Source of the DNA: a virus
Strand: one strand, 5' to 3'
Length of the DNA: 64,000 nucleotides
IMG/VR virus record: IMGVR_UViG_3300027413_000002
The notes under the pieces: model-generated
Database searches by the model: none
Seen by the model: the letters and a program-made list of their open reading frames with translations, nothing else
What the model was told of the DNA's origin: nothing
Shown: piece after piece, positions 2,658-53,500 of the stretch
Layout: each line of letters starts with the position of its first letter
Numbering within the stretch: the first letter of the stretch is position 1
Program-made: the position numbers and the translations under genes

Positions 2658-2678
2658 GGGGGAGCAATGCGCTCCCCC
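2658..2678. terminator. GC-rich hairpin GGGGGAGC-AATGC-GCTCCCCC (terminator or stability hairpin)
   Basis: Perfect 8-bp inverted repeat just after the hsp20 stop. It has a T-rich tail only on the + strand and follows a GATAAATA late-promoter variant on the - strand. Confidence 0.55.
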
Positions 2679-2686
2679 TTATTTAT

Positions 2687-3142: not shown

Positions 3143-3197
3143 AATGGTCTCCTTATATTAAGCGAGTTTTAATTGTTGCGATCCTTTCGGCATCGCA
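3143..3197 (-). promoter_or_regulatory. ROSE-like RNA thermometer in the hsp20 5'UTR
   Basis: CUC-G-CUU-AAUAU-AAGGAG hairpin (3166-3149) sequesters the SD with a bulged G. An upstream GAAA-capped hairpin lies at 3197-3177. Confidence 0.65.
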
Positions 3198-3202
3198 TTC
3201 TA

Positions 3203-3231
3203 TATATAATACTTTACGACAAAAATGTCAA
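3203..3231 (-). promoter_or_regulatory. sigma70-type promoter upstream of hsp20
   Basis: TTGACA at 3231-3226 followed by AT-rich TATTATATATA. Confidence 0.6.
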
Positions 3232-3232
3232 G

Positions 3233-3649: not shown

Positions 3650-3686
3650 AAATCCTATTCTTTTTCTTTTTAAGAGTGTCTGGATT

Positions 3687-3698
3687 TATTTATAAATA
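3687..3698. promoter_or_regulatory. Overlapping divergent T4 late promoters (palindrome TATTTATAAATA)
   Basis: TATAAATA on - (3694-3687) toward regA and on + (3691-3698) toward ORF 3704. Confidence 0.75.
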
Positions 3699-3703
3699 TC
3701 AGT

Positions 3704-36292: not shown

Positions 36293-37307
36293 AAGTCTCA
36301 TCAAACTCTTCAAGGAATCGGTATGCATCATCCACACCCTGATTACCTGAATCTGGTGCTTCGAATGTAACCGTTGGTACGGAAGTGTATCCACTACCGC
36401 CATCATTAATAACTACGTTCTTGACTCTGTACTTTCCAGTATTTATAGGATCGACTTCCATGACAACCGATGCTCTTGCACCAGAACCACCGCCACCAGA
36501 AATGGTAACATTTGGTCCATTCTCTCCATAGTTGCCGCCTGCATATGTAAGAGATATTGTATCGACTGACTGGCTTAATAGCGTTGCAACCCCAGTAGTT
36601 GTCGCTGCCACCACAGTATATTGTTGAGTGGTACGCGCTCCAGCCAAATCTGGATTTTGGAATATATTGGCAACTGCTTTCTTAATAACATTTTGGTCGC
36701 CCACATGACCATAGAAATTAAGTTTCATATTGAATGTGAGAGTCCAGACGATACTCGCTCTGTCTGCAAAAGTTCCTTGTGACTGGTCTTCGTACGCAAC
36801 TGAATCCAATGTGAGTTTGATGTCGCGTTTGATACCCAACTCAGGTAGATCATTGACAGTTATACTGAAGTCTGGATTGAAGAACGGAAGGATTTGTTCG
36901 ATTATTTGCAATCCATCGTCTTGGTTTTTTGCAAACACATACAGTTGTAAACTGAGGTCATATGGTGTAGATGTGAATACGCTCTTTACAGAAGTTGCCG
37001 ATCCCGAACCCTTTTTATGGTGGTGGATGGGAGAGACCCTTCTTGCTGCATCGTATTGCAGTGAGATGATTTCAAACCCCATACGAGGAAGTACAATAGC
37101 GACTTCACCACGACTTTCAACAGTCGGGACTTGCTCAATTCTAGAGATAAATTTTTGTTTTGTGGAATACGCAAGAGGCACTCTCAATGTCTGGGCGACA
37201 GAACCAGAAGAGTCTTTTCTCTCTATTATGATGTTGTTGAATATGGTTCCAAATGCCGCGACTGCTTTACGGACATGAGAGTGATAAAAATTCTTACCCT
37301 TAAACAT
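36285..37307 (-). CDS. 15: Tail sheath stabiliser gp15 with C-terminal extension
   Basis: FYH, AFGTIFN, VPLAY, LPRMGFE, QIIEQILPFF.P. Confidence 0.95.
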   Translation of the reverse strand: MFKGKNFYHSHVRKAVAAFGTIFNNIIIERKDSSGSVAQTLRVPLAYSTKQKFISRIEQVPTVESRGEVAIVLPRMGFEIISLQYDAARRVSPIHHHKKGSGSATSVKSVFTSTPYDLSLQLYVFAKNQDDGLQIIEQILPFFNPDFSITVNDLPELGIKRDIKLTLDSVAYEDQSQGTFADRASIVWTLTFNMKLNFYGHVGDQNVIKKAVANIFQNPDLAGARTTQQYTVVAATTTGVATLLSQSVDTISLTYAGGNYGENGPNVTISGGGGSGARASVVMEVDPINTGKYRVKNVVINDGGSGYTSVPTVTFEAPDSGNQGVDDAYRFLEEFDETYE

Positions 37308-38050
37308 TATAAGTCTCCGAATGGGTTAGATTCAGTGAAGTCAAGGATATTACTAGCAATCTCTGCTGCTTTGAAATCGTCTCCCTGAACAGAAGGTTTG
37401 ATTGCATAGTCTTCTTTAATGAGAGAGCCGCCATCTTCCAGTGTAAGATTACCTGAAGCATCTTCGAGAACAAGTTCGAACAGAAGTTGATCGACTGTAT
37501 TGTCGTCCTCGATCTGATCAATTGCAGTATTACCTGTGTCGATTCTTTCAGAACCATACTCGAACAACTCACATTTGAGTTTAAACACATAGATCTTACC
37601 GAGTTGGTAGAAAGGATCTTGGAATTCAACAAATTTGATTTCCATGAGGGATCTGGTTTTGGGAAAAAATAATAGATCTCCCTCCATCGGTCTGTCACCG
37701 CCACCGACAAACGTGCTTCCATCAGTGTTGTTAACAATATCGTTCCATCTCTTTCTAGACAAAACGAATGTTGCTTGGTCTCTTATCTCAAGACCAAACC
37801 GCTGGAATAATTCTCCGTCTCCCTCGAATCCTTCTGCGTTTTCTAGATACATTTCAACTGGGTATGCTTGTTCGAATTTAGATAATGCATCTTCGTCAAA
37901 GATAGTATCAGTATTCACGAATGTACGAGGCATATAGAAAATGTCATGACCATAAATCTTCAACGACTCGACAACAAGATCCTCCACTAGCCGTTGTTCA
38001 GCAGTGGTTCCAGATGTGTCGCCCGATTGAAAGTAGAAATTGGTAGCCAT
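37307..38050 (-). CDS. 14: Neck protein gp14
   Basis: EQRLVEDL, YMPR, FGLEIRD, PMEGDL, FYQLGK, FTESNPFG. Confidence 0.96.
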   Translation of the reverse strand: MATNFYFQSGDTSGTTAEQRLVEDLVVESLKIYGHDIFYMPRTFVNTDTIFDEDALSKFEQAYPVEMYLENAEGFEGDGELFQRFGLEIRDQATFVLSRKRWNDIVNNTDGSTFVGGGDRPMEGDLLFFPKTRSLMEIKFVEFQDPFYQLGKIYVFKLKCELFEYGSERIDTGNTAIDQIEDDNTVDQLLFELVLEDASGNLTLEDGGSLIKEDYAIKPSVQGDDFKAAEIASNILDFTESNPFGDL

Positions 38051-38053: not shown

Positions 38054-39013
38054 TCAACCTGTCATGAATGTTGGGGGCAATTCGTATCTTACTTGCATCT
38101 CTTCTTCAATTTGACCTATCTCAGCAAGAGCCTCGCCAAAGATAACGTCACCGTTGAGAGTAACACCACCAGGAAGTTGGATTCCTCCGAACTTCTTCAT
38201 GTTCTCTCCCCATTGCCGCTTGATCAATGCAGTAGCATATTTCTTCAACCATAAGTCGTTGTAGACTTCTGAATAGTCTGTTCCAGCTACAAGAGCATAA
38301 CCTTCTGCTACAATGAAGTCACCGATATCGAAAGTCTTGTCCATATCCGTGTCGATATACATTTTGTTCGTTTTGCGATTGAATCTGATTGCGCGATCAT
38401 TCACAAACAAACTCTCAAGGAGATTCATATGAGTCTTCACCATTGAGTAGTATGTGACGTCTGCGCTGAGTAGATTGTACAGATCGTTTTGAGCAAATTG
38501 ATAGTCAATATCAAACAGACCATCAGAGTTAGATGTCGAGCCAATACCGCCAAACTTAAACATTTTTGTCACACCGAGTATCTCATTACCGATAGTGATG
38601 TAACCGTTCTCGATATCGCCTTTTACGATTGTGCTGATTGTTGCAGTAAGTGCTGAGTCAGAACCAGTGATTGTCTCTCCTGCAGCGAACTTTGCAGCAC
38701 CTTGTACGTTTTCATAGATTACTTTGTCGCCCGAACTGCTTTTATCGACAGTAGCTTTCGCTCCTGATGTGCCACCTGTAACTGTTTCACCGTCAATAAA
38801 TGCAACAGAAGCGGATAGATTTAGAGTAGAACCTTCAAGTGCTTTCTTAATATACACACGTTCTACGCCATCAAAATGGTATTCCTGCCATAACTGTAAT
38901 GCATCATCGATGCGATCGCTAACCTGATCTTCATCCACGTTTATTTCGATTACAGGGAATCCCAATCTTCTGAGGCAGTAATCTATTAGTTCTTGTCTAG
39001 TTGATAGAGCCAT
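38054..39013 (-). CDS. 13: Neck protein gp13
   Basis: YCLRRLG.PVIEINV, HFDG, KRQWGENMKKF.G..LPGGV. Confidence 0.96.
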   Translation of the reverse strand: MALSTRQELIDYCLRRLGFPVIEINVDEDQVSDRIDDALQLWQEYHFDGVERVYIKKALEGSTLNLSASVAFIDGETVTGGTSGAKATVDKSSSGDKVIYENVQGAAKFAAGETITGSDSALTATISTIVKGDIENGYITIGNEILGVTKMFKFGGIGSTSNSDGLFDIDYQFAQNDLYNLLSADVTYYSMVKTHMNLLESLFVNDRAIRFNRKTNKMYIDTDMDKTFDIGDFIVAEGYALVAGTDYSEVYNDLWLKKYATALIKRQWGENMKKFGGIQLPGGVTLNGDVIFGEALAEIGQIEEEMQVRYELPPTFMTG

Positions 39014-39060: not shown

Positions 39061-40788
39061 TTATGATTGGTCATAAGAATACAACAGAGCCTTCAGTGCA
39101 TTAATTTCTTGTTGGACAAAGGCAGTTGTTGCAATTTTAGTTGTATTATCGCCTGTTGACTGTGTTGTCGACGTGGTTACTGACGTGAGGTATCCAGCTG
39201 ATGCGTGATTACCCCAGCCATGCGCTGTATCTGCTTTAGTTCCCTGTGCAGCTGTTGCGTAGTCTGAAGAATCAAATGCTTTCACTTCCGCGAGGTTTGT
39301 GACCTCTGAATCCATCAACGCTCCAGCTGCCGTCACGTTTGTCGCGTCTGTAACATCCGCTGATGCCTCTATACCATTTAGCTTTGTGTGATCAGCATCA
39401 GTAAAGTTATTTTGTGTGAGACCACCATCACCTACAGTGTATGTAGTATTTGTATCAGCCGAACTAATAGTTCCATCGGCTGCAATGGTAACATTAGTCC
39501 CTGCTGTCAATGCCGCGACCACATTAGCTGTGTCAGTTACATCAGCCGATGCTTCAATGCCATCTAGTTTAGTGTGGTCAGCATTAGTGAAATCATTTGA
39601 GACAGTTGGTATAGTTGGCGCACCTGATAACGAACTATATGCGCCATCGAATGCATCAGTTATACCATAGCCATTTATTGTCGTTGGTTTGCTGGTAATA
39701 TCTGCAAACTCCACATCTCCACCACCGCCACCAGAGATAGCGATATTTCCGCTCCCGAGAAGAGAAGTTCCGTTGACTGTCTTGATGCTAGTCCCTGATA
39801 CCAGAGCCGATTGTGCATCAGTGATGCCATAACCACTCAACGTGGTAGGAGTGGAAGTGATTTCGGAGAATGTAACGTCATGACTGACTTTGGCGTCTGA
39901 TTGGTCGACAGCTTTCAATTTGCCGCCAGAGTTTTTCAACTTCAGAACATTACCGTTATTTCCAATGTGAATCTCTTCAACGATTACCTTTTTAAGATTA
40001 TCTGAACCGTCTTTAAAAGTAACATCACCATTGGTATCTTTTTGTATCTTTGTTCCACCCAAGTTAATGGTTTCACCTGCTAGGAACAAATCATTCCATC
40101 GCTTTGTCGCTGAACCGAGATTATATGTTTCGGTTGCAGATGGAAGGATATGTTCACCGACTGATGAAAAATCTGCGCTTCCACCACCACCCGATGCATC
40201 TGCTCCCACAAACTTGCCAGTTGCTGAATCATACTTTAAAAATTTATTGTTTACAAGAGCAGTCGAACGATCTAAGTCGTCCATGTCTTTTATCTTTACT
40301 GCACCACCGCCCGAAGAACCTTGAAGACCCAACCGAATACTCATGATTGATTTCTTCACGTCATCGATCTGTTTCTCTAGACCTTTTATTTTGACCTGTT
40401 CTTCAGATAACTCAACACGCTTGGTCTTCAAGAAGTCGAGTGCCTGTTCTTGAAGAGGTGTGTCTACTAATTCTTCTAGGATTTCTTTGTCTTCTTCAAA
40501 GACCTGTTCGACAACTTCTTGTATTTCAGGGAGTTTATCTTCTGTGTCGCCAACAATCTCCTCAACCTGAACACCACCTTTGTTTGTTGGTGATGTCAAC
40601 CACGCTTCCATGGCAGCGACTTCGCGCTTTTGTTTTTCTTCCTCTTCCTTCAACTGTTTCAACTCAGACGAAAACGCCTCCAAGAAATCGCCTTGAAGAT
40701 CTTTCGATTTTTTCTTTGTTTTCTTCTGTTCGGCAGAGTTCTTGGCTTTTTCTTCAGCCAACATCTGAAACAGGTCTTTCATATCCAT
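39061..40788 (-). CDS. Mosaic fibre-like virion protein at the wac/fibritin position
   Basis: N-terminal coiled coil; PTT..GYGITDA twice; FT.ADHTKL.GIEASADVTD twice; DNTTKIATTAFV. Confidence 0.65.
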   Translation of the reverse strand: MDMKDLFQMLAEEKAKNSAEQKKTKKKSKDLQGDFLEAFSSELKQLKEEEEKQKREVAAMEAWLTSPTNKGGVQVEEIVGDTEDKLPEIQEVVEQVFEEDKEILEELVDTPLQEQALDFLKTKRVELSEEQVKIKGLEKQIDDVKKSIMSIRLGLQGSSGGGAVKIKDMDDLDRSTALVNNKFLKYDSATGKFVGADASGGGGSADFSSVGEHILPSATETYNLGSATKRWNDLFLAGETINLGGTKIQKDTNGDVTFKDGSDNLKKVIVEEIHIGNNGNVLKLKNSGGKLKAVDQSDAKVSHDVTFSEITSTPTTLSGYGITDAQSALVSGTSIKTVNGTSLLGSGNIAISGGGGGDVEFADITSKPTTINGYGITDAFDGAYSSLSGAPTIPTVSNDFTNADHTKLDGIEASADVTDTANVVAALTAGTNVTIAADGTISSADTNTTYTVGDGGLTQNNFTDADHTKLNGIEASADVTDATNVTAAGALMDSEVTNLAEVKAFDSSDYATAAQGTKADTAHGWGNHASAGYLTSVTTSTTQSTGDNTTKIATTAFVQQEINALKALLYSYDQS

Positions 40789-40792
40789 TGAG

Positions 40793-41122
40793 TTATGCCT
40801 TTGTCACTTGTGGTGTGACTGTGACGATACCCTCAACTACACGGATCGTTTCCGATCCAGAAGCGGATTCGCAGTCGTATACATACCTTCCTGCTTTTAA
40901 ATTTCCTGTTTCAGTTGCAGTGAGGGAAAGAGTAATGACTCCTGTTGCGTCTACCTGCGCTGTCGTGAAACTTGTGGAGGTGGAACTGTAGTAACTTTTT
41001 CTCAACTGACCTGTTGTCGTATAACCAGTAAGGTTTTTTGCTGCTCCAGCACTATCTTTGGCTGTTACATCAACTGAGAATGTTGTACCCTGATCAATAA
41101 CTATATTTTTTTGCGTTGCCAT
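40793..41122 (-). CDS. Small virion structural protein (BppU-like Ig fold)
   Basis: IDQGTTF, LTGYT, LRKSY, GRYVYD, RVVEG.VTVTP; late promoter at 41145. Confidence 0.7.
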   Translation of the reverse strand: MATQKNIVIDQGTTFSVDVTAKDSAGAAKNLTGYTTTGQLRKSYYSSTSTSFTTAQVDATGVITLSLTATETGNLKAGRYVYDCESASGSETIRVVEGIVTVTPQVTKA

Positions 41123-41167
41123 ATGTTTGCTCCAATGCTGCTCTTATTTATAAGATTATAAAAACAC

Positions 41168-41196
41168 TTGACTTTTTCCCACTAAATAGGTATAAT
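41168..41196 (+). promoter_or_regulatory. sigma70 promoter TTGACT-N17-TATAAT with a nested late-like ACTAAATA
   Basis: -35 at 41168-41173, -10 at 41191-41196, ACTAAATA at 41181-41188. Confidence 0.8.
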
Positions 41197-41203
41197 GTCT
41201 GTT

Positions 41204-41887
41204 ATGAAAACTATTTTTATGTTGCTGTACGGCAGCAAATATTCTTATAGAGATGTTAATAATATTGTTGACTCGACCAACGGTCAGGGGTATAATTATG
41301 TTCTGTATTGTGACTCTGCACCTAGTGGGTTAGACCCAAAGGTCAAGACAGTCACAGGAATAGACCCAGAGTTGGGAACATTCAATAAGGTGATGATGTT
41401 TGAAGGGCGTGATATAGATCAATGTTTATATTTAGATCTAGATGTCATCATTCAAAACCCAAATCTTGACGAATTCTTTGACGCAGGATTAGAAAGACCC
41501 ACCATATGTAAGACGTACTGGAAGCCAGAAGGTTTCGAAGCACATATCGGTGGTGGTGACTATAACTCTAGTGTTATTGCTTGGAGCAAAGGAAATGGGA
41601 GGTCGATGTTCACGCACTTCTCCGCAGACCCAGATAGATGGCTCGTACGATACCGAGATTGCGACGATAAATACTTATACCATATACACGGATATATCTT
41701 TGCACAGTTTCCCAAGGGCAGTATATACTCTTATGCATATGGTATTGATTATGAAACGGATACGAGTCCCAGAGGTAGGAAGCATCATAAGGGAGCAAGT
41801 ATCTGCCTGTTAAACGGTCAAGATAGACACGACTTCAATTTAAGGATTGATTACTATTCTCACTTTTCTGACGATAAAGTGGGGTGA
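41204..41887 (+). CDS. GT-A nucleotide-sugar transferase, paralog 1
   Basis: YGSKYS, YLDLD, YNSSVIAW, YSY. Start placed at 41204 because the 41195 ATG overlaps the -10 box. Confidence 0.75.
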   Translation: MKTIFMLLYGSKYSYRDVNNIVDSTNGQGYNYVLYCDSAPSGLDPKVKTVTGIDPELGTFNKVMMFEGRDIDQCLYLDLDVIIQNPNLDEFFDAGLERPTICKTYWKPEGFEAHIGGGDYNSSVIAWSKGNGRSMFTHFSADPDRWLVRYRDCDDKYLYHIHGYIFAQFPKGSIYSYAYGIDYETDTSPRGRKHHKGASICLLNGQDRHDFNLRIDYYSHFSDDKVG

Positions 41888-43247
41888 CAAATACTCTGCA
41901 GAGTATGTGAATAACCTTTATGGTATGATTGATGCGAACTATGTCAATCAATTTAGAATGGTATGTTTCACAGATGAACCCGATGGGATTCGGGAAGAAG
42001 TAGATATTCACCCTATCCCCGATGTTGAACCGCTACACCCAAAGTATTGGTTTGGCGAGGAGAACTATTGCTGGGATCGTTCCAAATTCCTTCTGTTCAA
42101 TGCACAAGAATGGCTCAATGATGTTGGTCCATTCTGTTATTTCGATTTAGATATTATCATACAAGACTCAATTGATGAGTTTTACGAACTTGCATTCCAA
42201 CCACATATCCTATATTCTCATTGGCAACCTGAAGGGCAGGTGAATAATAGAAGGTTTAGAGATATTCGTGGAACGTACTTCAACTCTAGCTGCATGCTTT
42301 GGTGGTCTGAACAACCGAAGAAAATATATGATGATGTCGTGAATAATCCAGATGTGTTCAAAGTATTTTACAAGGGTTCTGACAACTACCATCAGTGGAG
42401 AAGACCAGCTGGTAATGAATTCTGGAACTTCCTACCCGAAGAATGGTATTACAGTTACAATTACCAAGATACAAAATATGATGCCAAACTCGCTTTGTTC
42501 AACCAGAATTACATAACAAACGATGAGTCTATCTCTATTGAGGAGTTAGAAGATCCAGTCCTACTCAATCACTGGTACGGTAAATATGATATGTATAAGG
42601 ATGTCCCGACTCGAGTGGTTCTAGAACTATCAAACAAATACAATGACACTAAAAATCAATTCAACGATCTGTTCGTTGAAGACGACGAACTAACAATTGA
42701 AGATGTGAAGAGGATATTCAAAGATCCACCAGAATATGTTACATTACTCACAACACTCGCTCGCCCGAATCGGTGTAAAGATTATTTCAAAATTGTAGAA
42801 TGGTTCGAGCAACAGGGTACACAGGTGATACAACCACCACTAGATTTTGGTTTACACATAATCAATAAACTGGGGAGACCCATAGTTGAACAGGAAAAAG
42901 AACTTGTAACAAGAGAGAATATCAAGAAGTTTAAACAAAAAGAAGAATATAGGAATGTTACAAAAGAAGAAAAGTGGGTCATTGACTGTGAAGCCAGAAA
43001 CGACAATATGGTTTACATCAATGCAAAGGGAAATGTGTTCCCTTGTTCGTATATGGCGAGAGATATCCTAGAAAATAGACTATATCCACTTCATCCAATC
43101 GACTACCCATACAATCCTAAATACAATAACGCTAAGTCCTTCCCATTGAAGGATATTGTATATAATGCAGACTTTGATTGTTATAATGATAGTCTGAAGA
43201 AAGACCATTTGAAAATTTGTAAAGAGACTTGTGGAAGATGCGTGTAA
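41847..43247 (+). CDS. GT-A transferase fused to a degenerate radical-SAM and SPASM-like domain
   Basis: KWGDKYS, CFTD, FDLD, FNSS, GSDNY; C-terminal C...YINAKGNVFPC...CKETC. Confidence 0.72.
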   Translation: MITILTFLTIKWGDKYSAEYVNNLYGMIDANYVNQFRMVCFTDEPDGIREEVDIHPIPDVEPLHPKYWFGEENYCWDRSKFLLFNAQEWLNDVGPFCYFDLDIIIQDSIDEFYELAFQPHILYSHWQPEGQVNNRRFRDIRGTYFNSSCMLWWSEQPKKIYDDVVNNPDVFKVFYKGSDNYHQWRRPAGNEFWNFLPEEWYYSYNYQDTKYDAKLALFNQNYITNDESISIEELEDPVLLNHWYGKYDMYKDVPTRVVLELSNKYNDTKNQFNDLFVEDDELTIEDVKRIFKDPPEYVTLLTTLARPNRCKDYFKIVEWFEQQGTQVIQPPLDFGLHIINKLGRPIVEQEKELVTRENIKKFKQKEEYRNVTKEEKWVIDCEARNDNMVYINAKGNVFPCSYMARDILENRLYPLHPIDYPYNPKYNNAKSFPLKDIVYNADFDCYNDSLKKDHLKICKETCGRCV

Positions 43248-44038
43248 ATTTCGTCTGTGCTAAATGGGGCACAAAGTATGGTGCACACTTTGTCAATCGC
43301 CTATGTAACATGGCTCGTAGAAACTGCCCTGATCAGTTTGACTTTCACTTCTATTGTTACACTGATGACAGTGTGGGTCTTCAGTCTGATGTTAAGGTCA
43401 TCCCCTTTCCAGATATTCCTGATATTCACCCTAAGTATTGGTTCGGTTTGGACGATTACAAGTATGGAATGGCTCGCTGTTGGGATCGTGCAAAGACTTT
43501 CGTTTTTAATACCCATAATTTCGCAGACGATAAACCACACGGGCGTTTCGTCTTTCTAGACTTAGACGTTATCATTCAAAACGATCTAACACCAATCATC
43601 ACTTACAATATGGAGCAACCGACCAAGATGCGTTCTTGGTGGCAAGATCCAAGACCCATGGATACTCGTCGCTTCAAACTTTCCCATGGTGCATTCACAA
43701 ACGGAAGTTGTCAGGTTTGGAGTGACGACCAGTGTGAACCTATATGGAATGATGTATTAGAACATCAGGAAAAGATTTGGTTTACATTCACAGACGGCAC
43801 TGATAACTACCACAGCTGGAGATGGAAAGAGTTATGGGATTATTTCCCGAGTTGGATGGCATACTCGTACAACCGTGGACGCTCTTGGGATGAAGATGAT
43901 TTAAACGTAGGAATCTATAGAGAGAATTGTATTCTCTGCGTATTTAATGTAGACCTTTTACCATTTGAAGATGGATCTAGAGGTAAAACAAAACAAGACG
44001 AATTGGCAGACCCAAGATTACTGGAGCATTGGAAATGA
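43238..44038 (+). CDS. GT-A nucleotide-sugar transferase, paralog 3
   Basis: KWGTKYG, CYTD, FLDLD, NGS, GTDNY, YSYN. Confidence 0.78.
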   Translation: MRVNFVCAKWGTKYGAHFVNRLCNMARRNCPDQFDFHFYCYTDDSVGLQSDVKVIPFPDIPDIHPKYWFGLDDYKYGMARCWDRAKTFVFNTHNFADDKPHGRFVFLDLDVIIQNDLTPIITYNMEQPTKMRSWWQDPRPMDTRRFKLSHGAFTNGSCQVWSDDQCEPIWNDVLEHQEKIWFTFTDGTDNYHSWRWKELWDYFPSWMAYSYNRGRSWDEDDLNVGIYRENCILCVFNVDLLPFEDGSRGKTKQDELADPRLLEHWK

Positions 44039-44460
44039 AGATAGGACTCACTGCAAGCGCATTCGACTTACTACATGCTGGTCATGTTCAAATGTTAGAG
44101 GAAGCAAAAACTCAATGCGATTATTTGATATGTGCATTACACATAGACCCGAGTACCCAAAGATCAGAGAAAGGCAAACCTGTCCAGAATATGGTTGAGC
44201 GATACACGCAACTGAAGGCAGTGAAGTATGTCGATGAAATTATACCTTATGCGACGGAGAACGAGTTAGAAGATATCTTGGAATTATATCCGATCAATGT
44301 AAGAATAATTGGCGAAGAATATGAGAGATCTTCATTCACAGGAGACTGGATTTGCGATAGGAAAGGAATCGAAATATACTACAATAAACGAGAACATCGA
44401 TTCAGCACCAAACATTTACGCAAAAATATTCTATGGGCAGAATCGGATTTCGTTAGATGA
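44035..44460 (+). CDS. Cytidylyltransferase (TagD-like)
   Basis: AFDLLHAGH (HxGH), ERY.QL.AVKYVDEI, GEEY, REHRFST. Confidence 0.9.
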   Translation: MKIGLTASAFDLLHAGHVQMLEEAKTQCDYLICALHIDPSTQRSEKGKPVQNMVERYTQLKAVKYVDEIIPYATENELEDILELYPINVRIIGEEYERSSFTGDWICDRKGIEIYYNKREHRFSTKHLRKNILWAESDFVR

Positions 44461-45131
44461 ATATCTACACAGTGAAATGGGGAGACAAATACTCCTCTGA
44501 ATATGTAAACAAGATTGCATACGATATTGCAGCCGATTTCCCAGAGGCAGACCGCAAAGTATATTGTATAACTGACGACCCGACTGGTCTCAAAGACTTC
44601 ATTGAGCCGATACTTATACCAGAAGGAAATGATTTACAGAAATGGTGGAACAAAATGTATCTGTTCTCACCTCTGGTTGAGCAGGAAGGGGAGAAACTTT
44701 TCTTTGACCTCGATATTCTCATTCAACAGGACATAACTGTATTTGAAGAGTTCGATCCAGAAAACTGTCTTGGTATCGTAAAGACTTGGTGGCACGATAT
44801 TGAAACGATGCGCGAGGAAACCAAACACGTCCCGCATAAATTCAGCGACATAAACTCGAGTGTTCTGCGGTGGAACGATTCATTCGACAGTAAAAAGCTG
44901 TGGGAGTTCTTTGATAAATACAAGGAACAAATTATGTGGCACTATAGGGGAATTGATAATTTCCTTTGTGATAAAAACATAATTCCTATGAAGCTGTTTC
45001 CATTTGGTTGGGTCTATAGTTTCAATCAGGGTTATGTATATCCACAAGACACCGAGCGGCACGTCTATAGAGAAATGCCATATATTTGTTTATTTGATTC
45101 AATGGGAAAAAGTGAAGATGTTAAAATTTAA
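44457..45131 (+). CDS. GT-A nucleotide-sugar transferase, paralog 4
   Basis: KWGDKYS, CITD, WWNKM, FFDLD, INSS, GIDNF. Confidence 0.8.
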   Translation: MNIYTVKWGDKYSSEYVNKIAYDIAADFPEADRKVYCITDDPTGLKDFIEPILIPEGNDLQKWWNKMYLFSPLVEQEGEKLFFDLDILIQQDITVFEEFDPENCLGIVKTWWHDIETMREETKHVPHKFSDINSSVLRWNDSFDSKKLWEFFDKYKEQIMWHYRGIDNFLCDKNIIPMKLFPFGWVYSFNQGYVYPQDTERHVYREMPYICLFDSMGKSEDVKI

Positions 45132-45837
45132 GATGATTTTACCTCAAGCGATGATGACGATAGGTCAGCTTTTCATAATACCAGCAATCTGGTTTGTGGT
45201 TACAGCTGAGCATACGATGTTAGGTGTAATATCCTCTCTAGTAGCTTGTTTTGTATTCACCTGTTTAGGAGTAGCGGTAAGCGCACATAGATATTTTACT
45301 CATAGATCTTTTCGCATTTCTTACACGAAAGAAAAACTTCTATCTTTATTGGTTGTGCTGTCAACATGGCTGAGTCCATTTGAATGGGCTGCTGCTCATT
45401 GGCATCACCATAAACATTCAGATACTGAATTAGACACACATAGTTCGAAATACTTGGGTTGGAAAAATTGGTTTTTTGTTTTTCATAGATCATATGCAGC
45501 TGCACCTTCGGCAGTGTCAGCTCGTTTAATTAAAAAGAAATGGCATATGTTTTTGTTCAACAACAAATATTTTATTATATTTTCTTATGCATCACTGGTT
45601 TATTTACTTGGTGGTATGAATTATCTATTCTACTTATGGGTAATACCTACATCGCATGCATTTTTGGCGCAGATGATTACTGTAAATAACCACGTTAATG
45701 GTGAACCGAAAGACAGCTTTTGGCAAAATATAGTTACCCTTGGTGAAGGATATCATGCCCATCATCATGAATACCCTAAAAATTATGAAAAGGGGTTTAT
45801 TATAAAACCTATTGTGAAGGTAATAAAAGATGCTTAA
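45118..45837 (+). CDS. Second membrane fatty-acid desaturase-like protein
   Basis: HRYFTH, HWHHH, GEGYHAHHH; start probably at 45118 or the next ATG. Confidence 0.85.
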   Translation: MLKFKMILPQAMMTIGQLFIIPAIWFVVTAEHTMLGVISSLVACFVFTCLGVAVSAHRYFTHRSFRISYTKEKLLSLLVVLSTWLSPFEWAAAHWHHHKHSDTELDTHSSKYLGWKNWFFVFHRSYAAAPSAVSARLIKKKWHMFLFNNKYFIIFSYASLVYLLGGMNYLFYLWVIPTSHAFLAQMITVNNHVNGEPKDSFWQNIVTLGEGYHAHHHEYPKNYEKGFIIKPIVKVIKDA

Positions 45838-46498
45838 ATCTAATTTTTTAGCAAACTATAAGTTCTGGGGAGAGGCATTCTACTTTATTGAGAAGAAAGC
45901 ACCGCATAAAATATCTGACCTTCGTCAGTGTTTTGAACAGAACCATGTTGAGGCAGCAGAGTGGTTAGTTGAAGAACTACAGAAAAATATTGACAACTGC
46001 GCTAGACAAGAGAAGATTAAGGTATTGGTACTCAATTCGTGGTTGGGGATGCCTCTCGTCCCCCTCCTCTGCGAGAACCTCGATATCGGAGAGTTGCACC
46101 TAGTCGACTTAGACAAAGAGGCATTAGACTTATCCAAGATAATGCATAAACATTACTCTCAAGAGAAGTTTGTGAAGATTCGCCACCACAATCTAGACAT
46201 CCCATTTGCGTTTGACGAACTCAATAAGATTGACGCAGATGTTGTAATCGCTATCAACACCGAGCAAATGTATCCGCTCAAAGAACTTCAAACGAAGAAC
46301 CCAATGGCATTGTTTGCTTGTCAAAATAGTAATGTTATTGAAGAGATGTATGGTATCAACTGCGTAGACTCTATTGAAGACTTGAAAGAGCAGATTGATT
46401 TAGATGAGATATATTATTCGGGACAACGAGAACAAACATATTACTCGTGGGATGGACAAAAGAAATATGATCGATTTATGGTAATCGGATCTAAGTAA
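45830..46498 (+). CDS. Class I SAM methyltransferase-like protein (degenerate motif I)
   Basis: VLVLNSWLG, LVDLD, DVVI..NTEQM, RFMVIG. Confidence 0.5.
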   Translation: MLKSNFLANYKFWGEAFYFIEKKAPHKISDLRQCFEQNHVEAAEWLVEELQKNIDNCARQEKIKVLVLNSWLGMPLVPLLCENLDIGELHLVDLDKEALDLSKIMHKHYSQEKFVKIRHHNLDIPFAFDELNKIDADVVIAINTEQMYPLKELQTKNPMALFACQNSNVIEEMYGINCVDSIEDLKEQIDLDEIYYSGQREQTYYSWDGQKKYDRFMVIGSK

Positions 46499-47105
46499 GA
46501 TCCTCGATCATCATTTCCCACATTCCCTCATCAGGGATAACAAACCCCAGAGTAATTCTTGGACCACCACCAGCACAATGCCAAACTGGATCCTCTTTAC
46601 CGCCATAATATCCAACTTTAGCAGACCAACCTTTCCAATCGGGAAGAGTGTGGATTATTTCTCCGTCCCAAAACTGGAAGTATCCATCCCCAAGATTATA
46701 ATTTAAGAGAATATTATATCCAGGAACATCCCAGTTATTATGCCACCCCATAAATCCATCTTCTGGATAGTAGACATGAACAGCACTATGCCTTGCACCC
46801 AGATATTTAACAAGTGTGTCATTTAATCTCTGGGATTCTTTTTTGAATTTTTCTGGGGATCTAGCACCAACACCAAAGTGGGCATTACGAACAACTTCTG
46901 GTGGACCAGCGTGTTGCCCTTCTTCCTTACCCATTGTCTTTGTGAGCATTTCTGTGAGGTATTCATACGACTGAGAATGTTCAGCAGTAGAATCACCATG
47001 GTCGTCGATATAGAGTTCTGAGAGGTCTTGCTTAAAAAACCAATCACTATGTTCTTCAAGAATCTCTAGTATCTCAGTATTAAGGTCTATAAATTTCATT
47101 ACCAA
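46491..47105 (-). CDS. Cupin/2OG-Fe(II) oxygenase-like protein
   Basis: YYPEDGFMGWHNN ... WHCAG ... RITLGF. Confidence 0.55.
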   Translation of the reverse strand: MVMKFIDLNTEILEILEEHSDWFFKQDLSELYIDDHGDSTAEHSQSYEYLTEMLTKTMGKEEGQHAGPPEVVRNAHFGVGARSPEKFKKESQRLNDTLVKYLGARHSAVHVYYPEDGFMGWHNNWDVPGYNILLNYNLGDGYFQFWDGEIIHTLPDWKGWSAKVGYYGGKEDPVWHCAGGGPRITLGFVIPDEGMWEMMIEDLT

Positions 47106-47790
47106 TAATTCTCTCGGTTGGGATTGTATAGTGTTGTATAACAGCTTCCTCGCCCATCAACTCATCTTGTTTATAGCCTGTAACAAAATTCCATTTAGCG
47201 TCTGGTTGTGGAAACTCTCCTACTATAACATTAAAATTGCCATTAGTCAAGAGATTCCACATAGTAAATGTGTCCCACTTTCTAACTTCTTCTGGGTATG
47301 GAGAGGGATCCCATCGAGGATCGTTTTGTTCAAGATACCACCTATACCAACTATTCATCAAATCTTTGGTCGTTTCGGTTCTATATAAAAACAAACCGCA
47401 GTGATATATCATTTCTTCAGTTTCTGATAGTTTTGTTATTTTGGCATTGTATGGTCTGTTGCGCGTAAACAAAATATCACTATCACCAAGGAGATCAAAT
47501 ACTCCAGATATTTCCTCGCTGTTGATCAGAGTATCACAATCAACATATAATGTGGCGTCATAAGGAGACTTCGACAATGCCCAGAGTTTTGCTCTTATGT
47601 GATTCGGAACACCATCTGTTATAATCTGATCAAAGATCTCCCTCGCCTCATCACAAACCCAAGGTTCATGGGTGAACAAAGTTATCTTTGCTTCTGGAAA
47701 GAAATCTAAGAGGGATTGAGCGGATTGGAGTGCTGCTTGGTAAAATGCTTTGTTTACTGAAGCAACATAGACAAAACCATTACTCTTCAT
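47080..47790 (-). CDS. GT-A glycosyltransferase (GT8/GT77-like)
   Basis: GFVYVAS, RAKLWAL..SPYD.TLYVDCD (DxD), WDTF, KWNF. Confidence 0.75.
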   Translation of the reverse strand: MKSNGFVYVASVNKAFYQAALQSAQSLLDFFPEAKITLFTHEPWVCDEAREIFDQIITDGVPNHIRAKLWALSKSPYDATLYVDCDTLINSEEISGVFDLLGDSDILFTRNRPYNAKITKLSETEEMIYHCGLFLYRTETTKDLMNSWYRWYLEQNDPRWDPSPYPEEVRKWDTFTMWNLLTNGNFNVIVGEFPQPDAKWNFVTGYKQDELMGEEAVIQHYTIPTERIIGNEIYRP

Positions 47791-48235
47791 TTGCCAATGC
47801 TTCCTGTATCAACAGGGTAGCATAGGATTGGACCTCGATTGGCGTCTTTGCTTTTCTAAGACGCTTCTTCAGATCTCTGTTTGACGAGTTTTTGATTTCT
47901 TCGATCTCAAATGCTTCCAGCTTCATATTGAATAAGACTTCTTGTTTTTGACGAACCTTATCAGCTTCGTGGCGTTCACGATGAATCTGCTCTTGTCTTC
48001 GTGCTTCTTCTTTGTGTTTGGCAGTAGATTCGTCTAATGCCTCTTCACCAAAGATTTCTAAGATTTCATCGAAGTCTTTATTGACACCTCCAGATGCATC
48101 AATATGAACAACTGCATATTCGCCTGATAAAGTCAAACGCCTTGCAACAACTTGGCGATTGTTCTTATCTTTCCAGATAGGATCTTTCCAAAGTGGTGGG
48201 CGTTCTTTGTCTGATGATGATGCGATAACTTCCAT
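47780..48235 (-). CDS. Hypothetical protein (possible assembly chaperone)
   Basis: Charged helical C-terminus LFNMKLEAFEIEEIKNS; follows the YxG-repeat gene. Confidence 0.55.
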   Translation of the reverse strand: MEVIASSSDKERPPLWKDPIWKDKNNRQVVARRLTLSGEYAVVHIDASGGVNKDFDEILEIFGEEALDESTAKHKEEARRQEQIHRERHEADKVRQKQEVLFNMKLEAFEIEEIKNSSNRDLKKRLRKAKTPIEVQSYATLLIQEALANEE

Positions 48236-48268
48236 TAATTTACTCCATGATGTAAAATTGTATTCTAT

Positions 48269-49324
48269 TTAGGCAGTTCTCATCCACAGCCGTTTAGACT
48301 CTTGAGTGCTTGAAGAACTTATGATGGTAAGACCGTTATATGTTCCAGCATAAGTACCGCTGTATGAACCAGTGTATGAACCTGCATAATAACCAACGTA
48401 ATATCCAGTATAGTAACCTGTATATACTGTCCCTATATATCCACTGAAAAATAGAGCATACGAACCTGCATAAGCCCCTGCATAAGCCCCTGCATACGCG
48501 CCTACATAAGATCCCGTATAAGTCCCTGTGTAAGACCCCGCATAAGCATAGGATGCTGTGTCTTTCATCTGGTCAGTCATGATCTCGCCCATTTGCTGCC
48601 ATGTCCCAGTTCCTGGAGCCGATTCAGCAAGAACAAATTTCCCAATATCATTGTCTTTAATTCTGTTTGCAACGCGAGCGAACAGACTTTCAATCTCAAC
48701 ATCTGTCATCTCTTGTAAAGAATTATCATCAAGTTTCTTGACGAGCCCAGTCCCTGAAACTCTAGTTGTATCGGTTGTTGCAGCAGTTTTTTGCCAGAGT
48801 GTTTTGGTGACGGTTGTTCCATCTACTTGGGTGTCAGAGATTGTTCCTCTGTTTGTCCAAGTTCCACCTGAAGGAGCAGAAGCAGAAAGGTAATACTGAC
48901 CAGCAGAAGTGGCTTGCTGTTCAACATATGAAGTGATCACTTCATCACAAATTTCTGTGTTTATTTCAGCGGCTGTCATTTCTAAAACATCACCGTCAGC
49001 ATTTACCCTTACTGGCGTTGTGATTGCTGAAGAGTTTGTAGTTTCGTTTTGATACATGGTATATGTATTTACAGTCGTAGATCCAGCAGATGTAGGGTGT
49101 GTACCAACCGCATCATTACGCTTTCTGTCTGTGAATGTTCCAATCGATGCATGGTTTGCGGGAACACTTCCTGTTGTGACATTCACAGAAGATGTTCCAG
49201 TATTAACAGATGCAAACTTCTCGAGTATTAATTGACCTGCGTACTGATACAACTCTGCTGCAGTCAATACCTGCAGACCCTGTTCTACGCTTCCCGAAAC
49301 TTTTACTTTTACTGGACCAGCCAT
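48269..49324 (-). CDS. Virion structural protein with a C-terminal YxG tetrapeptide array
   Basis: Thr/Ser-rich; about 15 YxGx repeats. Confidence 0.7.
   Translation of the reverse strand: MAGPVKVKVSGSVEQGLQVLTAAELYQYAGQLILEKFASVNTGTSSVNVTTGSVPANHASIGTFTDRKRNDAVGTHPTSAGSTTVNTYTMYQNETTNSSAITTPVRVNADGDVLEMTAAEINTEICDEVITSYVEQQATSAGQYYLSASAPSGGTWTNRGTISDTQVDGTTVTKTLWQKTAATTDTTRVSGTGLVKKLDDNSLQEMTDVEIESLFARVANRIKDNDIGKFVLAESAPGTGTWQQMGEIMTDQMKDTASYAYAGSYTGTYTGSYVGAYAGAYAGAYAGSYALFFSGYIGTVYTGYYTGYYVGYYAGSYTGSYSGTYAGTYNGLTIISSSSTQESKRLWMRTA
48332..48550 (-). repeat. 12-nt degenerate tandem repeat encoding YxGx
   Basis: For example CCTGCATAAGCC repeated at about 48465-48500. Confidence 0.9.
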
Positions 49325-49336: not shown

Positions 49337-50377
49337 TTAATTTAATAGGTTGCCAGAAGAATCATAAAGAGCAATTGGTCTTAGCACTTCCCAGTTTTCT
49401 GCATCCTTACACACCAGAACCATCGAGGTTTTTGCTGGGAGATCTTTTGCAGCATTAGAAGAACCAGAGTCAACCTTATCCGAAGTATTTGGATAAACCT
49501 TGATATCGTTGGTTGTGGCGTTGTAGATTTCACATCTAAGACCAGTCGCAGCAGATTTTAACTTAACACCCTGCGCTGCAGAAGCAGTAGTCACGATATT
49601 GATTGTTTCTGTCAGCGCAGTAGCATCACCCTGAGCAGAACCAGCTGCAGTGATTGAAGCAGTGATACCATATTTCAGATCTCCTGAGAGAGTTGTAGTT
49701 CCTGAAATACTCAGTGAAGTGCCACCAATAGCACCTGCAGCACTCACAGTGAAGGTTGAACCATTTACATCAATACCACCATCAAGGGAAGAAAGACCAT
49801 CAACAGTCAATGTTCCCGAGGTGTCAATGTTACCTGTTCCGTCAGCAACAGTAAATGCACCATCAACATCAATACCACCGTCTAGAGAGGCAAGACCAGA
49901 AGCATCAATGGTTGTAGCAACAGTTGCGTCACCTTCATCCGTAGACTGCCATTGAGTCGCGGATACAGCAACAAAGTCACGACCCTTTTCTGGACCAAGC
50001 GATAGTGCAGCATTGGCAGAAAGGTCGTTGATAGACTCACCAGAATATGGGTAAATCTTGACAGTTACTGTGGTAGAATTAAAGATTGTTACACGTGTGC
50101 CTGCAGAAGCATCAAGAAGTTTTACCCCTTGGTTGGCACTTGCTGTGTTAATGATATTATACGTTTTGGTCAACGCTGTTGCATCGCCCTGTACTGTGCC
50201 AGCGGCAGTAACCGAAGCATCAACACCAACAATGAATCGACCAGATACTGTGATATCATCAACAACAACGTCATCACCGCTTTGGTATTTGTCGGTGTTT
50301 AAATTTGTAAAGTTTGAATCCACCTCTGTGTTAGTGAGGGGTGAGCCTTTACCTGAACGAGTTGTAAGTGTTGACAT
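49337..50377 (-). CDS. Fibre/baseplate-connector-like protein with a duplicated domain
   Basis: KGSPLTNTEVDSNF N-terminus; AS.TAAG..QGDATALT...QGVKL...K.YP twice; GL.SLDGGIDV twice. Confidence 0.65.
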   Translation of the reverse strand: MSTLTTRSGKGSPLTNTEVDSNFTNLNTDKYQSGDDVVVDDITVSGRFIVGVDASVTAAGTVQGDATALTKTYNIINTASANQGVKLLDASAGTRVTIFNSTTVTVKIYPYSGESINDLSANAALSLGPEKGRDFVAVSATQWQSTDEGDATVATTIDASGLASLDGGIDVDGAFTVADGTGNIDTSGTLTVDGLSSLDGGIDVNGSTFTVSAAGAIGGTSLSISGTTTLSGDLKYGITASITAAGSAQGDATALTETINIVTTASAAQGVKLKSAATGLRCEIYNATTNDIKVYPNTSDKVDSGSSNAAKDLPAKTSMVLVCKDAENWEVLRPIALYDSSGNLLN

Positions 50378-50383: not shown

Positions 50384-50584
50384 TTACCTATTTTTTAGAA
50401 TTACCTGAATGGCATCTTTAATTAATGCCAAGTCTTCTTTCAGACTATTTATATCGTCGCAAACTTCGTCTAGCTTCCTAGACTGATTTTTTCTTGCTTT
50501 ATATGCAGCCAAGCCCTCGGCATCATTACTCAATAGCGAGTTCGTGGCTTTGTCTCTAGTATATTTATCCGTATTAAAATCCAT
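50384..50584 (-). CDS. Small coiled-coil hypothetical protein
   Basis: RD..T..L followed by heptad repeats; typical after vrlC-like genes. Confidence 0.6.
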   Translation of the reverse strand: MDFNTDKYTRDKATNSLLSNDAEGLAAYKARKNQSRKLDEVCDDINSLKEDLALIKDAIQVILKNR

Positions 50585-50595: not shown

Positions 50596-53500
50596 TTATA
50601 CTTGGAGAGCAATCGCCCTCAGATTTCTCAGCTGCGGAACATTTGACGTATTGTCAGTCATCAGAACAATCTTTACAGCGAACTCTTTGAAGTTTGTATA
50701 CGTTGTAGTTCCAAGAGTTGCTGTTGCAGTCGCGCTAGAACCACCGCCACCAGTTATAGTGATTGTCGGTGCAGCAGAAGAAGTTGAGTACCTTCCTGGA
50801 TCCGTGATAATAATCGAGGCAACCGCGCCACTACTTAGAACTGCAATACCCTTGGCTTGGCGAGTTGCTGTGCCACCAGAAAAAGTTACAGTCGGAGGAG
50901 TGGTATAAGATGAACCGCCAGCAGTAATCGCAGTTGCATCAACTCTCTTAACGGAATACTCTAAAGCATCACTGCTGTTGAGGTTTGCATTATCAATGGT
51001 ATATTTGGTTTCAATGAATTGAGTTTGAGCTAAACCTGCTGAATCAGGAACACCATCGTCAGTCATCTCAAACCAATTTAGCTCTTCTCTCAAGTTGGCA
51101 TCGTCTTCAGCAGCCAAGAACTTACCATAAACCTTAACAGAAGATCCGAATGGAGTCAGTTGGTCTAAGAAGATTTTTAAATCTTCAGCATCTTGCCCTT
51201 CAGATAGTCTGACTGTCTTAGAGATATATTTCGCAAGCGCAGAACCATTATTAGGATTAGTTTCATTTGTATCAGAATTATTGATCTTGTTCTGTGTAGT
51301 GATGAAACTACATCTGGATAAATCAATGACTGGACTTACGAACTTACTCTCAGTCGTGAATGTAGAGTTACTGTTGAAAGATTTAGCTCCACTCAGGTTA
51401 GCATCTTCATTGGACTTAGAGTATACTGCAAACTCTCTCGTAGTCTTTTGCTGCTCCATTTTAGTGATGATTCTTTCTACAGTTCCCTTGGTCGAGACAC
51501 CAGTAGATCGAGTTCCTGCATATTTGTGTGTCAAGTTTGTCTTCGGAAGTATCAACTCACCAAAGTTTAACTGAAGTTTGTTAAAGATCTTGTTTTCTAT
51601 AGAGGAAAGTGTTCCCTGAGAAGTTCCATTAGAAACGATATCTGCAACATCAAAGTCAGATTTTGTGAGTAGAACTCTCGCGACATCTCTTAGTGTAGAA
51701 TAGTTTTCAACAACACCTGTTTTAGTCGTGACATCAATTATACAGCCAGTACCAGAACCAGTTGTTGCAGATTGGGCGACATCTACTCCATCAGCAGTAA
51801 ACCCAGAACCCATGGAGTCAATTGTAAATCCAGTAACAGCACCAGTACTCACCGTTGTTACTTTAAGTTTGAGACCCGTTCCGTTGCCAAATCCAGCGAA
51901 GGTTATGACATTACCGACTGCGTGACCAGAACCACCATTATCAAGAGTTATGTCGAATGCGTGGAGGTTATCACCTGCTTGGAATTGACCAGCAGTGAAG
52001 TCCGTTAGTTGCAGATAGTCGATGGTGCTGTTAGTAAACTTAGCGACTCCATCAGTATCAGTAGTAAAGTTACAACGATAGATTCTGTGCATCAAATCTT
52101 CAGCTTGGATAGCATTCCAAGTTCTATTGTTTGACGACACGAACAGAACACCGCCCGAAACATCTTCGGCTACAATTCTTTGCGTGGTTCCAATTTTATT
52201 CTGACCCAGCTCAGATACATAGACCTCATAATCAGGGCTATTACCTTGTGGTAGAATAACGACACAATACTCTCGACCGCCCTCGAGGTATATTGGGGAG
52301 TCAAATGTGACGCCAGTAGTTGCATAACTTACTGTTCCATCTGCAAATTCAGTAGAGACACTTACATCAGAAGGAGAAAGATACTTTGAACCATAAGGAA
52401 CAACTCTGATTCCAGGATACCCATTGACCACTTCCCTTATCTGGATTGTGACCCCGTCAGTATCAGATTTTTTTCTAAAGAACAAATCAATTTTTGGACA
52501 GAATATACCTTCTTCTTCAGCAATCGTGAATGTTTGTGCAGTTGGATCGAATGCAGTCAAGTTGACATCTACAGCAAGGCTGGCGGTAACATCTTCAGTA
52601 CGAACATCAGTGACAATACTACCGAGCGTCTGTGGGTCTCCAAGGTTTGATCCAGTATTAAATGTCGGAACCTGCGTAGAAACAATCGTGCCTTGTTTAA
52701 CAGCGTCCAGACCAAACGAAGAATATGTTGCTTCAGCAGAGCTGGTTACAAATCCGTCTCGGTTCAGAACATCATCTACCATACGAAGAACTTTCTCTCC
52801 GATACGGAATCTTGACGCAGGAATTCTAAACTGACCAGCAATCCGACCCTCAGAGTCAGATACAATCGAAGCACCATATGCATTCGCGGTGTTGTTAAAA
52901 TCTGACCAGAAGTTGGTCGCGCCAGCAGCAAGTTGAGTAGTAAATGTCGAATAGGTTAGAGGACGACAATGATCAGAAACAGCATCGCCATCAAAGTAAA
53001 TATAAAACCTTGTATTTGGTTTTAATCGTGTGGCGTGGAATGTCACGTTCTGAGATCTCATGAATGGAGAGAACCCGATGTCGATAATTCGATCTCCATG
53101 ATTTTGAGTTACTGTTGTGGATCCAGTAGAAGCAATTGTCATGGTATTGACAGATTGACTAATCTGCGAAGATTCAACCACTTCGTTCATAGATACTTCA
53201 AAAGAAGCACTTGCGCTGGCGATTGACCTGTTCCCCTGCCCGCCACGGTCGCTGTCTGAATCAGACCCACTAAATGAAATTGGAGTTACCGTTGGCTCCA
53301 TTCCTGTCATCGTGGTCTCAACTCCATTCACGATACCAGCATTATTCAACGCACCTGTTACGTTCTCCAAAGCATCTGCAAGAGCATTATTTTCAACAAC
53401 TAAGTCACCACCATCTGCCATATTGACAAAGTTATCAGAAGCAGGATAGAGTTCGATGTCACCTTTGTAGTTAAACAAAAGAGAACCGATACAATTACGG

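Follow-up and report, generated by a model that had tools for sequence, protein, structure and literature searches.

A putative host recognition cluster of a pelagimyophage-like T4-type virus combines a conserved fibre-linked gene unit with a convergent operon of glycosyltransferase-like enzymes

Pelagimyophage-like phages are abundant in the ocean, and their fibre region decides host range. Islands of the type and location considered here have been known since 2020 as the pelagimyophage host recognition cluster (HRC), which is defined by the slot between VrlC and the neck genes gp13/gp14 and by a content of fibre genes and glycosyltransferases, GT8 being the commonest, together with sugar-activation genes of the lipopolysaccharide (LPS) type (PMC7029224). 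We analysed such an island in a 64,000-nucleotide stretch of viral DNA (IMG/VR record IMGVR_UViG_3300027413_000002; "the window"), where a plus-strand operon of enzyme-like genes, A to G, faces a minus-strand run, L-K-J-I-H, that includes the fibre-like YxG-repeat protein K (Table 1). Placed between VrlC (DUF4815) and gp13/gp14 and holding fibre and fibre-assembly PHROG matches, a GT8-clan fold, and the RfaE/TagD-like protein D, the region reads from its gene content as a compact HRC of a pelagimyophage-like T4-type phage. New here are an invariant K-J-I-H unit and the layering of genes around it, the fold assignments, an H-x-N protein family, the size of the KWGxKY transferase family, and the accessory status of D and F. 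The original prediction made for this DNA had proposed a dedicated virion-glycosylation pathway; glycosylation of the K-type fibre is still the best reading we can offer, although we hold it tentatively.

The linkage of I and H to the fibre gene supports this reading. Seventy-nine loci were recovered from IMG/VR with a K profile, and the counts that follow use the loci with enough flank. In every one of 62 loci, J, I, and H came directly after K; a G-type gene and at least one KWGxKY transferase lay on the opposite strand beside H in 38 of 39, a pairing that holds in the distant loci L006, L072, and L084; and four KWGxKY open reading frames (ORFs) were present in 31 of the 39. D was found in five related loci and F in three. 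Phage C48C1, L076, and L082 encode one or two long K-family proteins (0.8 to 3.3 kaa) whose C termini are Tyr-rich arrays (NYSRxFxGxY or PGPxYxxxYxR) with a conserved LW/YxR[TVI]A end; K is followed there, on the same strand, by J, I, H, a 110-aa fibre-assembly-like gene, and a fibre gene, and there is no convergent operon. In L008 and L013, K, J, I, and H are 65 to 89% identical, versus 90 to 99% for L, C, D, and E. Because the four genes diverge together while their flanks stay at 90 to 99%, K-J-I-H acts as one diverging or exchanged cassette. A layering is clear in the gene content, since K-J-I-H stands without the plus operon in three distant lineages and D and F are rare: K-J-I-H is the oldest layer and part of the fibre cluster, G and the KWGxKY transferases were inserted between H and the fibre-assembly gene, and D and F are a third layer of swappable extras. 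The position of D is occupied in L003 by a Methyltransf_21 gene, and the distant island of L006 has added a genuine radical SAM/SPASM enzyme, an aminotransferase, and a desaturase.

The same layering can be read as two unrelated units, J-I-H being a maturation or assembly set for K-type fibres and A-G an independent moron with another target (a host glycan or a small molecule). We consider this unlikely. It would account for the three lineages in which K-J-I-H stands directly before the fibre-assembly gene with no plus operon, for the separate promoter and opposite orientation of that operon, for the gain and loss of accessory genes on the plus side only, and for the difference in rates, C, D, and E being 99% identical where K, I, and H are 65 to 89% identical. 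It sits poorly with the presence of G and at least one KWGxKY transferase beside H in all but one of the 39 loci, distant ones included, and with the overlapping stop codons of the two operons. Membership of I and the KWGxKY enzymes in one retaining GT-A clan also argues for a connection, as expected of successive steps on one glycan.

Promoter signals suggest the timing of I and H. Across the window, 18 copies of the T4-late box TATAAATA were counted against 2.6 expected, 17 of them on the minus strand, and no terminator was found in the gap between K and J. Because a late box precedes L and no terminator separates K from J, I and H should be late proteins that are made together with the fibres. 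A sigma70-like extended -10 site lies inside I on the minus strand (TTGACT-17-TATAGT; 47222-47250), about 115 nt before the start of H, and, judged by its sequence, could allow separate, earlier expression of H. The plus operon has no late box in the window; the promoter type before A (TTGACT-N17-TATAAT) is kept in the nearest relatives. The -10 element of this promoter (41191-41206 region) overlaps the first ATG of A, at 41195, and homologues start at the second ATG, at 41204, and align from residue 4. Because of that overlap, A is probably translated from 41204, about 7 nt past the -10 element, on a leaderless or nearly leaderless mRNA. A second exact copy of the promoter motif is found inside A, 100 nt past the first (41268-41296), and may be an internal promoter or a chance occurrence. 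In four relatives (L086, L055, L067, and L046), a palindromic TTATTTATAAATAA box between the divergent fibre-assembly gene and transferase operon could serve as a bidirectional T4-late promoter. Since this position holds a sigma70-type promoter in the subclade of the window and a late box in another clade, promoter timing is no guide to the target of these enzymes.

The YxG-repeat protein of the original prediction was confirmed: K contains 13 overlapping [YF]xGx[YF]xG matches, is the sole window ORF of at least 100 aa with two or more, and has a DNA periodicity of 12 nt. It has no PHROG or Pfam family, and ESM Atlas gave unnamed viral clusters only. The neighbouring protein L has two internal repeats of about 100 aa (VTAAGTVQGDATALT... 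and ITAAGSAQGDATALT...) and a Ser+Thr content of 24.6%, equal to that of K. For I, listed originally as a fifth glycosyltransferase, the assignment stands as a GT8/GT77-like protein with an invariant DxD, but the sequence evidence is weak (Pfam GT8, 0.05 and 13.6 bits against a cut-off of 24.3; a marginal PDB profile match to glycogenin, 0.8), and the remainder comes from language-model features, the ESM Atlas neighbours being annotated as Nucleotid_trans/GT8 with a score of 0.97. Common origin with the KWGxKY family was not evident from sequence, since profile-profile comparison of I with that family gave a probability of 7%.

The oxygenase-like character proposed for H is upheld at the level of the predicted fold, with a variant site. 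The model has a confident oxygenase (double-stranded beta-helix) fold whose nearest structural neighbours are protein prolyl hydroxylases, AlkB and TET following within about 1 to 2 Z units. The canonical His-x-Asp/Glu...His facial triad was not found in H, which has HxN in its place. All of the 23 + 8 sequences compared, among them remote homologues with about 30% identity, keep H120-x-N122...H174. R181-x-T183, on the strand after H174, is invariant as well, and R181 may be the basic residue that binds the C5 carboxylate of 2-oxoglutarate. Because it is kept even in homologues this distant, the H-x-N site is a selected feature of the family and not a sign of decay. PDB profile searches with H and with G were uninformative, and tblastn of I and H against cultured phages found them in C48C1 only.

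All five transferases, G, and H are acidic (isoelectric points of 4.7 to 5.6) and have no membrane segments, so a soluble acceptor would suit them. We infer enzymatic activity, the donor sugars, the acceptor, and an acceptor common to the plus operon and to I and H. The soluble acidic enzymes would draw on cytoplasmic nucleoside diphosphate (NDP) sugars and assemble a short oligosaccharide, which may be methylated, on a soluble acceptor. The likeliest acceptor is the K-type fibre, where Tyr, Ser, or Thr hydroxyls or a residue oxidised by H would carry the sugar; the outcome would be a virion with a glycosylated tip. Fibre glycosylation best explains the strict and ancient linkage of I and H, within a late operon, to K-type fibres and their joint divergence. 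A more specific form of the idea, which we put forward with slightly greater reserve, is that K-J-I-H is a dedicated fibre-maturation system, in which a glycogenin-like transferase and an oxygenase of variant 2-His(+Asn) type act on the repeat tip (tyrosine/glycine here, Pro-Gly-Pro/Tyr/Arg elsewhere) of a putative receptor-binding fibre, and that the four-enzyme operon extends the sugar in this lineage. The dedicated pathway as first proposed is partly supported: the synteny and late cotranscription of K-J-I-H agree with it, but KWGxKY genes away from K, the sigma70-type promoter of the plus operon, and the noncore status of D do not fit it.

Another reading is DNA hypermodification, in which G and H would create a hydroxylated base and I and the KWGxKY transferases would add a mono- to oligosaccharide to it. 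Clusters of a methyltransferase, a TET-like dioxygenase, and GT-A/GT-B enzymes in phages do glycosylate 5-hydroxymethylcytosine, and they can contain secondary transferases that are GT8-like and be situated close to structural genes (bioRxiv 10.1101/2023.12.21.572611). The closest long relative, G003, which has the early-type promoter of its subclade before the plus operon, encodes a 434-aa Tet_JBP dioxygenase, a UDP-glucose dehydrogenase-like gene, a dCMP deaminase, and an NT5C nucleotidase at 415-4260 (L091, G003:C1), 75 kb from its island; from its gene content this is a candidate DNA base-modification cluster. We nevertheless regard DNA as a very unlikely target. H has no Tet_JBP match and carries HxN rather than HxD. 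The similarity of G to methyltransferases, claimed originally, was detected but is weak (Methyltransf_12, 0.021, and Spermine_synth, 0.026, both below cut-off; PDB spermidine synthase, 0.14); its Gly-rich loop position reads NSWLGMP, and motifs of C5- or N6-methyltransferases are absent from it. The complete relatives G001 and G002, which have the full island, encode ThyX and no Tet_JBP, ThyA-family, or C5-methyltransferase protein; five partial relatives show no Tet_JBP, and the Tet_JBP gene of G003 has no homologue in the window. All the enzymes are strongly acidic, and the linkage of I and H to a fibre gene is strict. The island itself contains no C5-cytosine methyltransferase, ThyA-type hydroxymethylase, or TET/JBP dioxygenase, but the Tet_JBP gene elsewhere in the G003 genome weighs against setting DNA aside as firmly as the original prediction did.

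The four paralogous plus-strand genes with KWGxKY, DLD, and NSS motifs are indeed related. Blastp linked A, B, C, and E to one another (B-C, 3e-44; C-E, 2e-17; A-B and B-E, 8e-13 each; A-C and A-E, the weakest pairs, 2e-7 each), and alignment A1 has the invariant columns G-x-x-Y, VN, DxD, N-x-S, W, and YS, the DxD residues D84 and D86 aligning with the DxD of LgtC. Their GT-A nature is supported by this motif and by the model of E, a GT8-clan GT-A fold for which most of the best structural matches are enzymes with proteins or protein-linked glycans as substrates (glycogenin, GlyE, UGGT, LARGE1, and Skp1 Gat1); LgtC and WbbM are also close neighbours of the KWGxKY-type model. From the fold, we infer that A, B, C, and E transfer sugar with retention from an NDP-sugar.

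None of A, B, C, and E was hit by the Pfam model Glyco_transf_8, and none of the KWGxKY family members tested had a match to any Pfam model. In the Pfam, PHROG, and NCBIfam searches, A, C, E, G, H, I, J, K, and L were assigned to no family. The KWGxKY family comprises about 4,756 clusters at 50% identity (E value of 0.001 or better). A Pfam scan of ten longer proteins with the domain revealed a single fusion, to TPR repeats at the N terminus of a protein at 1789-2835 of L095, a contig with the eukaryote-type neighbours RCC1 and LMBR1; the family therefore extends beyond phages. Two uncultured-phage proteins of about 700 aa (BFVD A0A6J5PVH5 and A0A6J7XC21; UniProt name MptE-like) are close structural matches to the KWGxKY-type model. 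MptE-like proteins are a type associated with flagellin glycosylation factors, and the two may contain both domains, which would be a lead toward protein acceptors. Searches with C (and K) by tblastn found no match in cultured phages. A scan of bacterial genomes for the C type yielded only two contigs, 76% identical (L093 and L094), filed in metagenome-assembled genomes (MAGs) of Bifidobacterium breve and Flavobacteriales, respectively; most likely they are phage contigs binned into the wrong genomes.

The Cys/His tail of B resembles a SPASM remnant at a sub-threshold level: SPASM scored 16.6 bits against a cut-off of 21.5, the tail has no CxxxCxxC and lacks the seven Cys residues of SPASM, and the residues conserved across orthologues are C142, C161, the last Cys, and H177 only. 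The tail showed no detectable similarity to the real radical SAM/SPASM protein of L006, and a PDB profile search with it was uninformative. The B orthologue of L004 (6688-9189; 833 aa) has some 345 helical, charged residues, without a family match, between the transferase domain and the tail.

D and F differ in how they compare with the original description. F is a desaturase-family protein as claimed, with a Pfam match (FA_desaturase, 44.4 bits against a cut-off of 29.7), three His boxes (HxxxxH, HxxHH, and HxxHH), and hydrophobic windows consistent with membrane segments. D belongs to the HxGH cytidylyltransferase family (motif HAGH; cyt_tran_rel, 54.5 bits against a cut-off of 27.7), but it is not specifically TagD-like, RfaE domain II scoring slightly higher in NCBIfam (73.8 bits, cut-off 181.5) than TagD TIGR01518 (63.2 bits, cut-off 165.4). 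This lack of specificity and the accessory status of D, which is present in few relatives, count against the notion of a CDP-polyol element at the core of the pathway.

Several points weigh against fibre glycosylation. GT8 enzymes are typical of the LPS core, and we know of no virion glycosylation in T4-like phages of Gram-negative hosts. Synteny with K would be equally expected if a receptor-binding protein were linked to receptor-masking genes. In Mosig and C48C1, KWGxKY transferases are encoded at a distance from any K gene, and they belong to a very large family. The synteny looked for by the original prediction is found for K-J-I-H, in the 62 loci and the three distant lineages, but not throughout for the KWGxKY families; independent occurrence of the transferases, which that prediction had named as evidence against itself, is the case for this gene set. 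C is the most conserved gene throughout (73 to 99%), far above K, which better fits an invariant acceptor other than the fibre. The plus operon, with its own sigma70-type promoter and its absence from three K-J-I-H lineages, may have a different target, and H, which has no canonical carboxylate ligand, may be no oxygenase. Modification of the host O-chain is the only published interpretation (PMC7029224).

These points bring in remodelling of the host surface, a possibility that we consider rather doubtful: the transferases, G, and the accessory donors would modify an envelope glycan of the infected cell, such as the LPS core or O-chain, so that superinfection is blocked or progeny are spared loss on debris. 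The genes would then adjoin the fibres because the masking chemistry must match the receptor of the fibre; llp of T5, which adjoins the receptor-binding gene of that phage, exemplifies the arrangement. Besides the distance of KWGxKY genes from K in Mosig and C48C1 and the high conservation of C, as expected of a conserved host acceptor, this reading draws on the closeness of LgtC and WbbM in structure, the RfaE-domain-II-like character of D, the sigma70-type promoter in the window subclade, and a flux of accessory genes typical of morons; it is also how such islands, with GT8 commonest and rfaE and UGDH (UDP-glucose dehydrogenase) partners, have been read in print (PMC7029224). It does not account for the position of I and H inside a late fibre operon with no promoter of their own or for the late box that precedes the plus operon in another clade. 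The five transferases are all acidic and have neither a membrane segment nor an LgtC-like basic C-terminal anchor, the Pfam and PHROG scans turned up no flippase, polymerase, ligase, or undecaprenyl phosphate transferase, and the C type occurs in no bacterial genome save the two phage-like MAG contigs.

The setting of the island agrees with the original prediction in most respects. The genes listed there are all present at their positions, and the location inside the late structural block is borne out by the surrounding T4-type late module, which includes baseplate wedge, fibre, neck, terminase, sheath, and capsid genes and the 1995-aa DUF4815/VrlC protein. The window is transcribed almost wholly from the minus strand, the exceptions including the plus-strand block at 41195-46498. 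Tight overlap was found as claimed, neighbouring genes overlapping by 4 to 41 nt, an arrangement that fits translational coupling. The two runs do not meet head-to-head, as had been stated; A-G and L-K-J-I-H converge tail-to-tail, because their stop codons overlap by 8 bp (46491-46498). The nearest cultured relative of the virus is a SAR11 phage; the major capsid protein shares 70% identity with its counterpart in Pelagibacter phage HTVC008M and 67% with the one in OM43 phage Melnitz. The complete relatives, of 165 to 170 kb, have no psbA, on which ground a cyanophage identity was rejected. From the content of the module, the capsid identity, and the absence of psbA from complete relatives, the source appears to be an uncultured pelagimyophage-like T4-type virus of a marine heterotroph. 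A search of the phage collection for near-identical DNA gave no match.

Table 1. Genes and promoter elements of the island and its borders, with window positions
Feature	Position	Strand	Basis or remark
Neck protein	37307-38050		
gp13-like neck gene	38054-39013		
Tail fibre protein (575 aa) and tail-fibre-assembly-like protein (109 aa), other island flank	39061-41122	-	PHROG matches
Late box of fibre/fibre-assembly flank	41145-41152	-	Motif
Sigma70-type promoter TTGACT-N17-TATAAT directly before A	41168-41196	+	4 such sites in window against 0.06 expected
A, most divergent KWGxKY GT-A paralog, N-motif LLYGSKY	41204-41887	+	Blastp to B, C, E; alignment A1; likely start ATG 41204
B, KWGxKY GT-A domain fused to C-terminal Cys/His domain	41847-43247	+	Blastp; SPASM-like below threshold
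C, KWGxKY GT-A paralog, best-conserved island gene	43238-44038	+	73-99% identity across relatives
D, small nucleotidyltransferase (HxGH), RfaE-domain-II/TagD-like, accessory	44029-44460	+	CTP_transf_like 5e-14
E, KWGxKY GT-A paralog, retaining GT8-clan fold in model	44457-45131	+	Predicted structure
F, membrane fatty-acid-desaturase-family protein, accessory	45118-45837	+	FA_desaturase 2e-11, three His boxes
G, conserved Rossmann/methyltransferase-fold-like protein	45830-46498	+	Weak Pfam and PDB matches
H, 2OG-Fe(II)-oxygenase-fold protein, H120-x-N122...H174...R181-x-T183	46491-47099	-	Predicted fold, alignments
I, GT8/GT77-like GT-A, invariant D84-x-D86 and H220	47080-47790	-	Weak sequence matches, language-model features
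J, small charged helical protein, always between K and I	47780-48235	-	Conserved order in relatives
K, fibre-like, two internal repeats, C-terminal YxGx array, conserved LWxRTA end	48269-49324	-	79 homologous loci
L, Ser/Thr/Gly-rich fibre-like protein with internal duplication	49337-50377	-	Sequence composition
M, small virion structural protein	50384-50584	-	phrog_473
T4-late box TATAAATA upstream of L-K-J-I-H	50446-50453	-	About 70 nt before L
VrlC/DUF4815 giant baseplate protein, one border of host recognition cluster	50596-56583	-	DUF4815 1e-49

If the fibre is glycosylated as proposed, it would be the first case of a glycosylated virion fibre among T4-like phages that infect Gram-negative marine bacteria, with a Tyr- or hydroxy-amino-acid-linked glycan, and host recognition, virion stability, and the stickiness of particles in seawater would hinge on a phage-made glycan that has not been sought. 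If the enzymes rewrite the host surface instead, the island would be a superinfection-exclusion system tied to a receptor-binding gene. Either way, it offers a compact, testable unit of four to nine small soluble proteins, and it defines two large families without a Pfam model, the GT8-clan KWGxKY family and the oxygenase-fold H-x-N family.

Compared with known enzymes, the KWGxKY transferases of the island share 12 to 17% identity with glycogenin, GlyE, LgtC, LARGE1, UGGT, and Skp1 Gat1, all of the retaining GT8 clan; unlike these, they have the KWGxKY N-motif and the NSS motif particular to the island family, and the E type has no C-terminal His motif. We are aware of no T4-like marine phage with a demonstrated glycosylated protein. 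Virion glycosylation of mycobacteriophages was reportedly described by Freeman et al. in 2023. It is noted in PMC11256854, and glycosylation in large DNA viruses is reviewed in PMC4691112; the hosts, transferase families, and substrates of the mycobacteriophage and giant-virus systems differ from those of the island. Closer in composition are the MT/5mYOX/GT clusters of Pyle et al. 2023 (bioRxiv 10.1101/2023.12.21.572611), in which methyltransferase-fold, 2-oxoglutarate (2OG)-dioxygenase-fold, and several GT-A genes also stand together, sometimes near structural genes; in contrast to them, the island has no C5-methyltransferase or Tet_JBP match and its complete relatives have no hydroxymethyl-pyrimidine route. 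The pelagimyophage HRCs of Zaragoza-Solas et al. 2020 average 44.6 kb, against about 11.6 kb for the cluster here, and are treated as nonsyntenic, without the K-J-I-H unit, the KWGxKY family, or the HxN oxygenase-fold family (PMC7029224). They are alike in occupying the same slot and in their fibre genes, several GT8-type transferases, rfaE-like genes, and radical-SAM cassettes.

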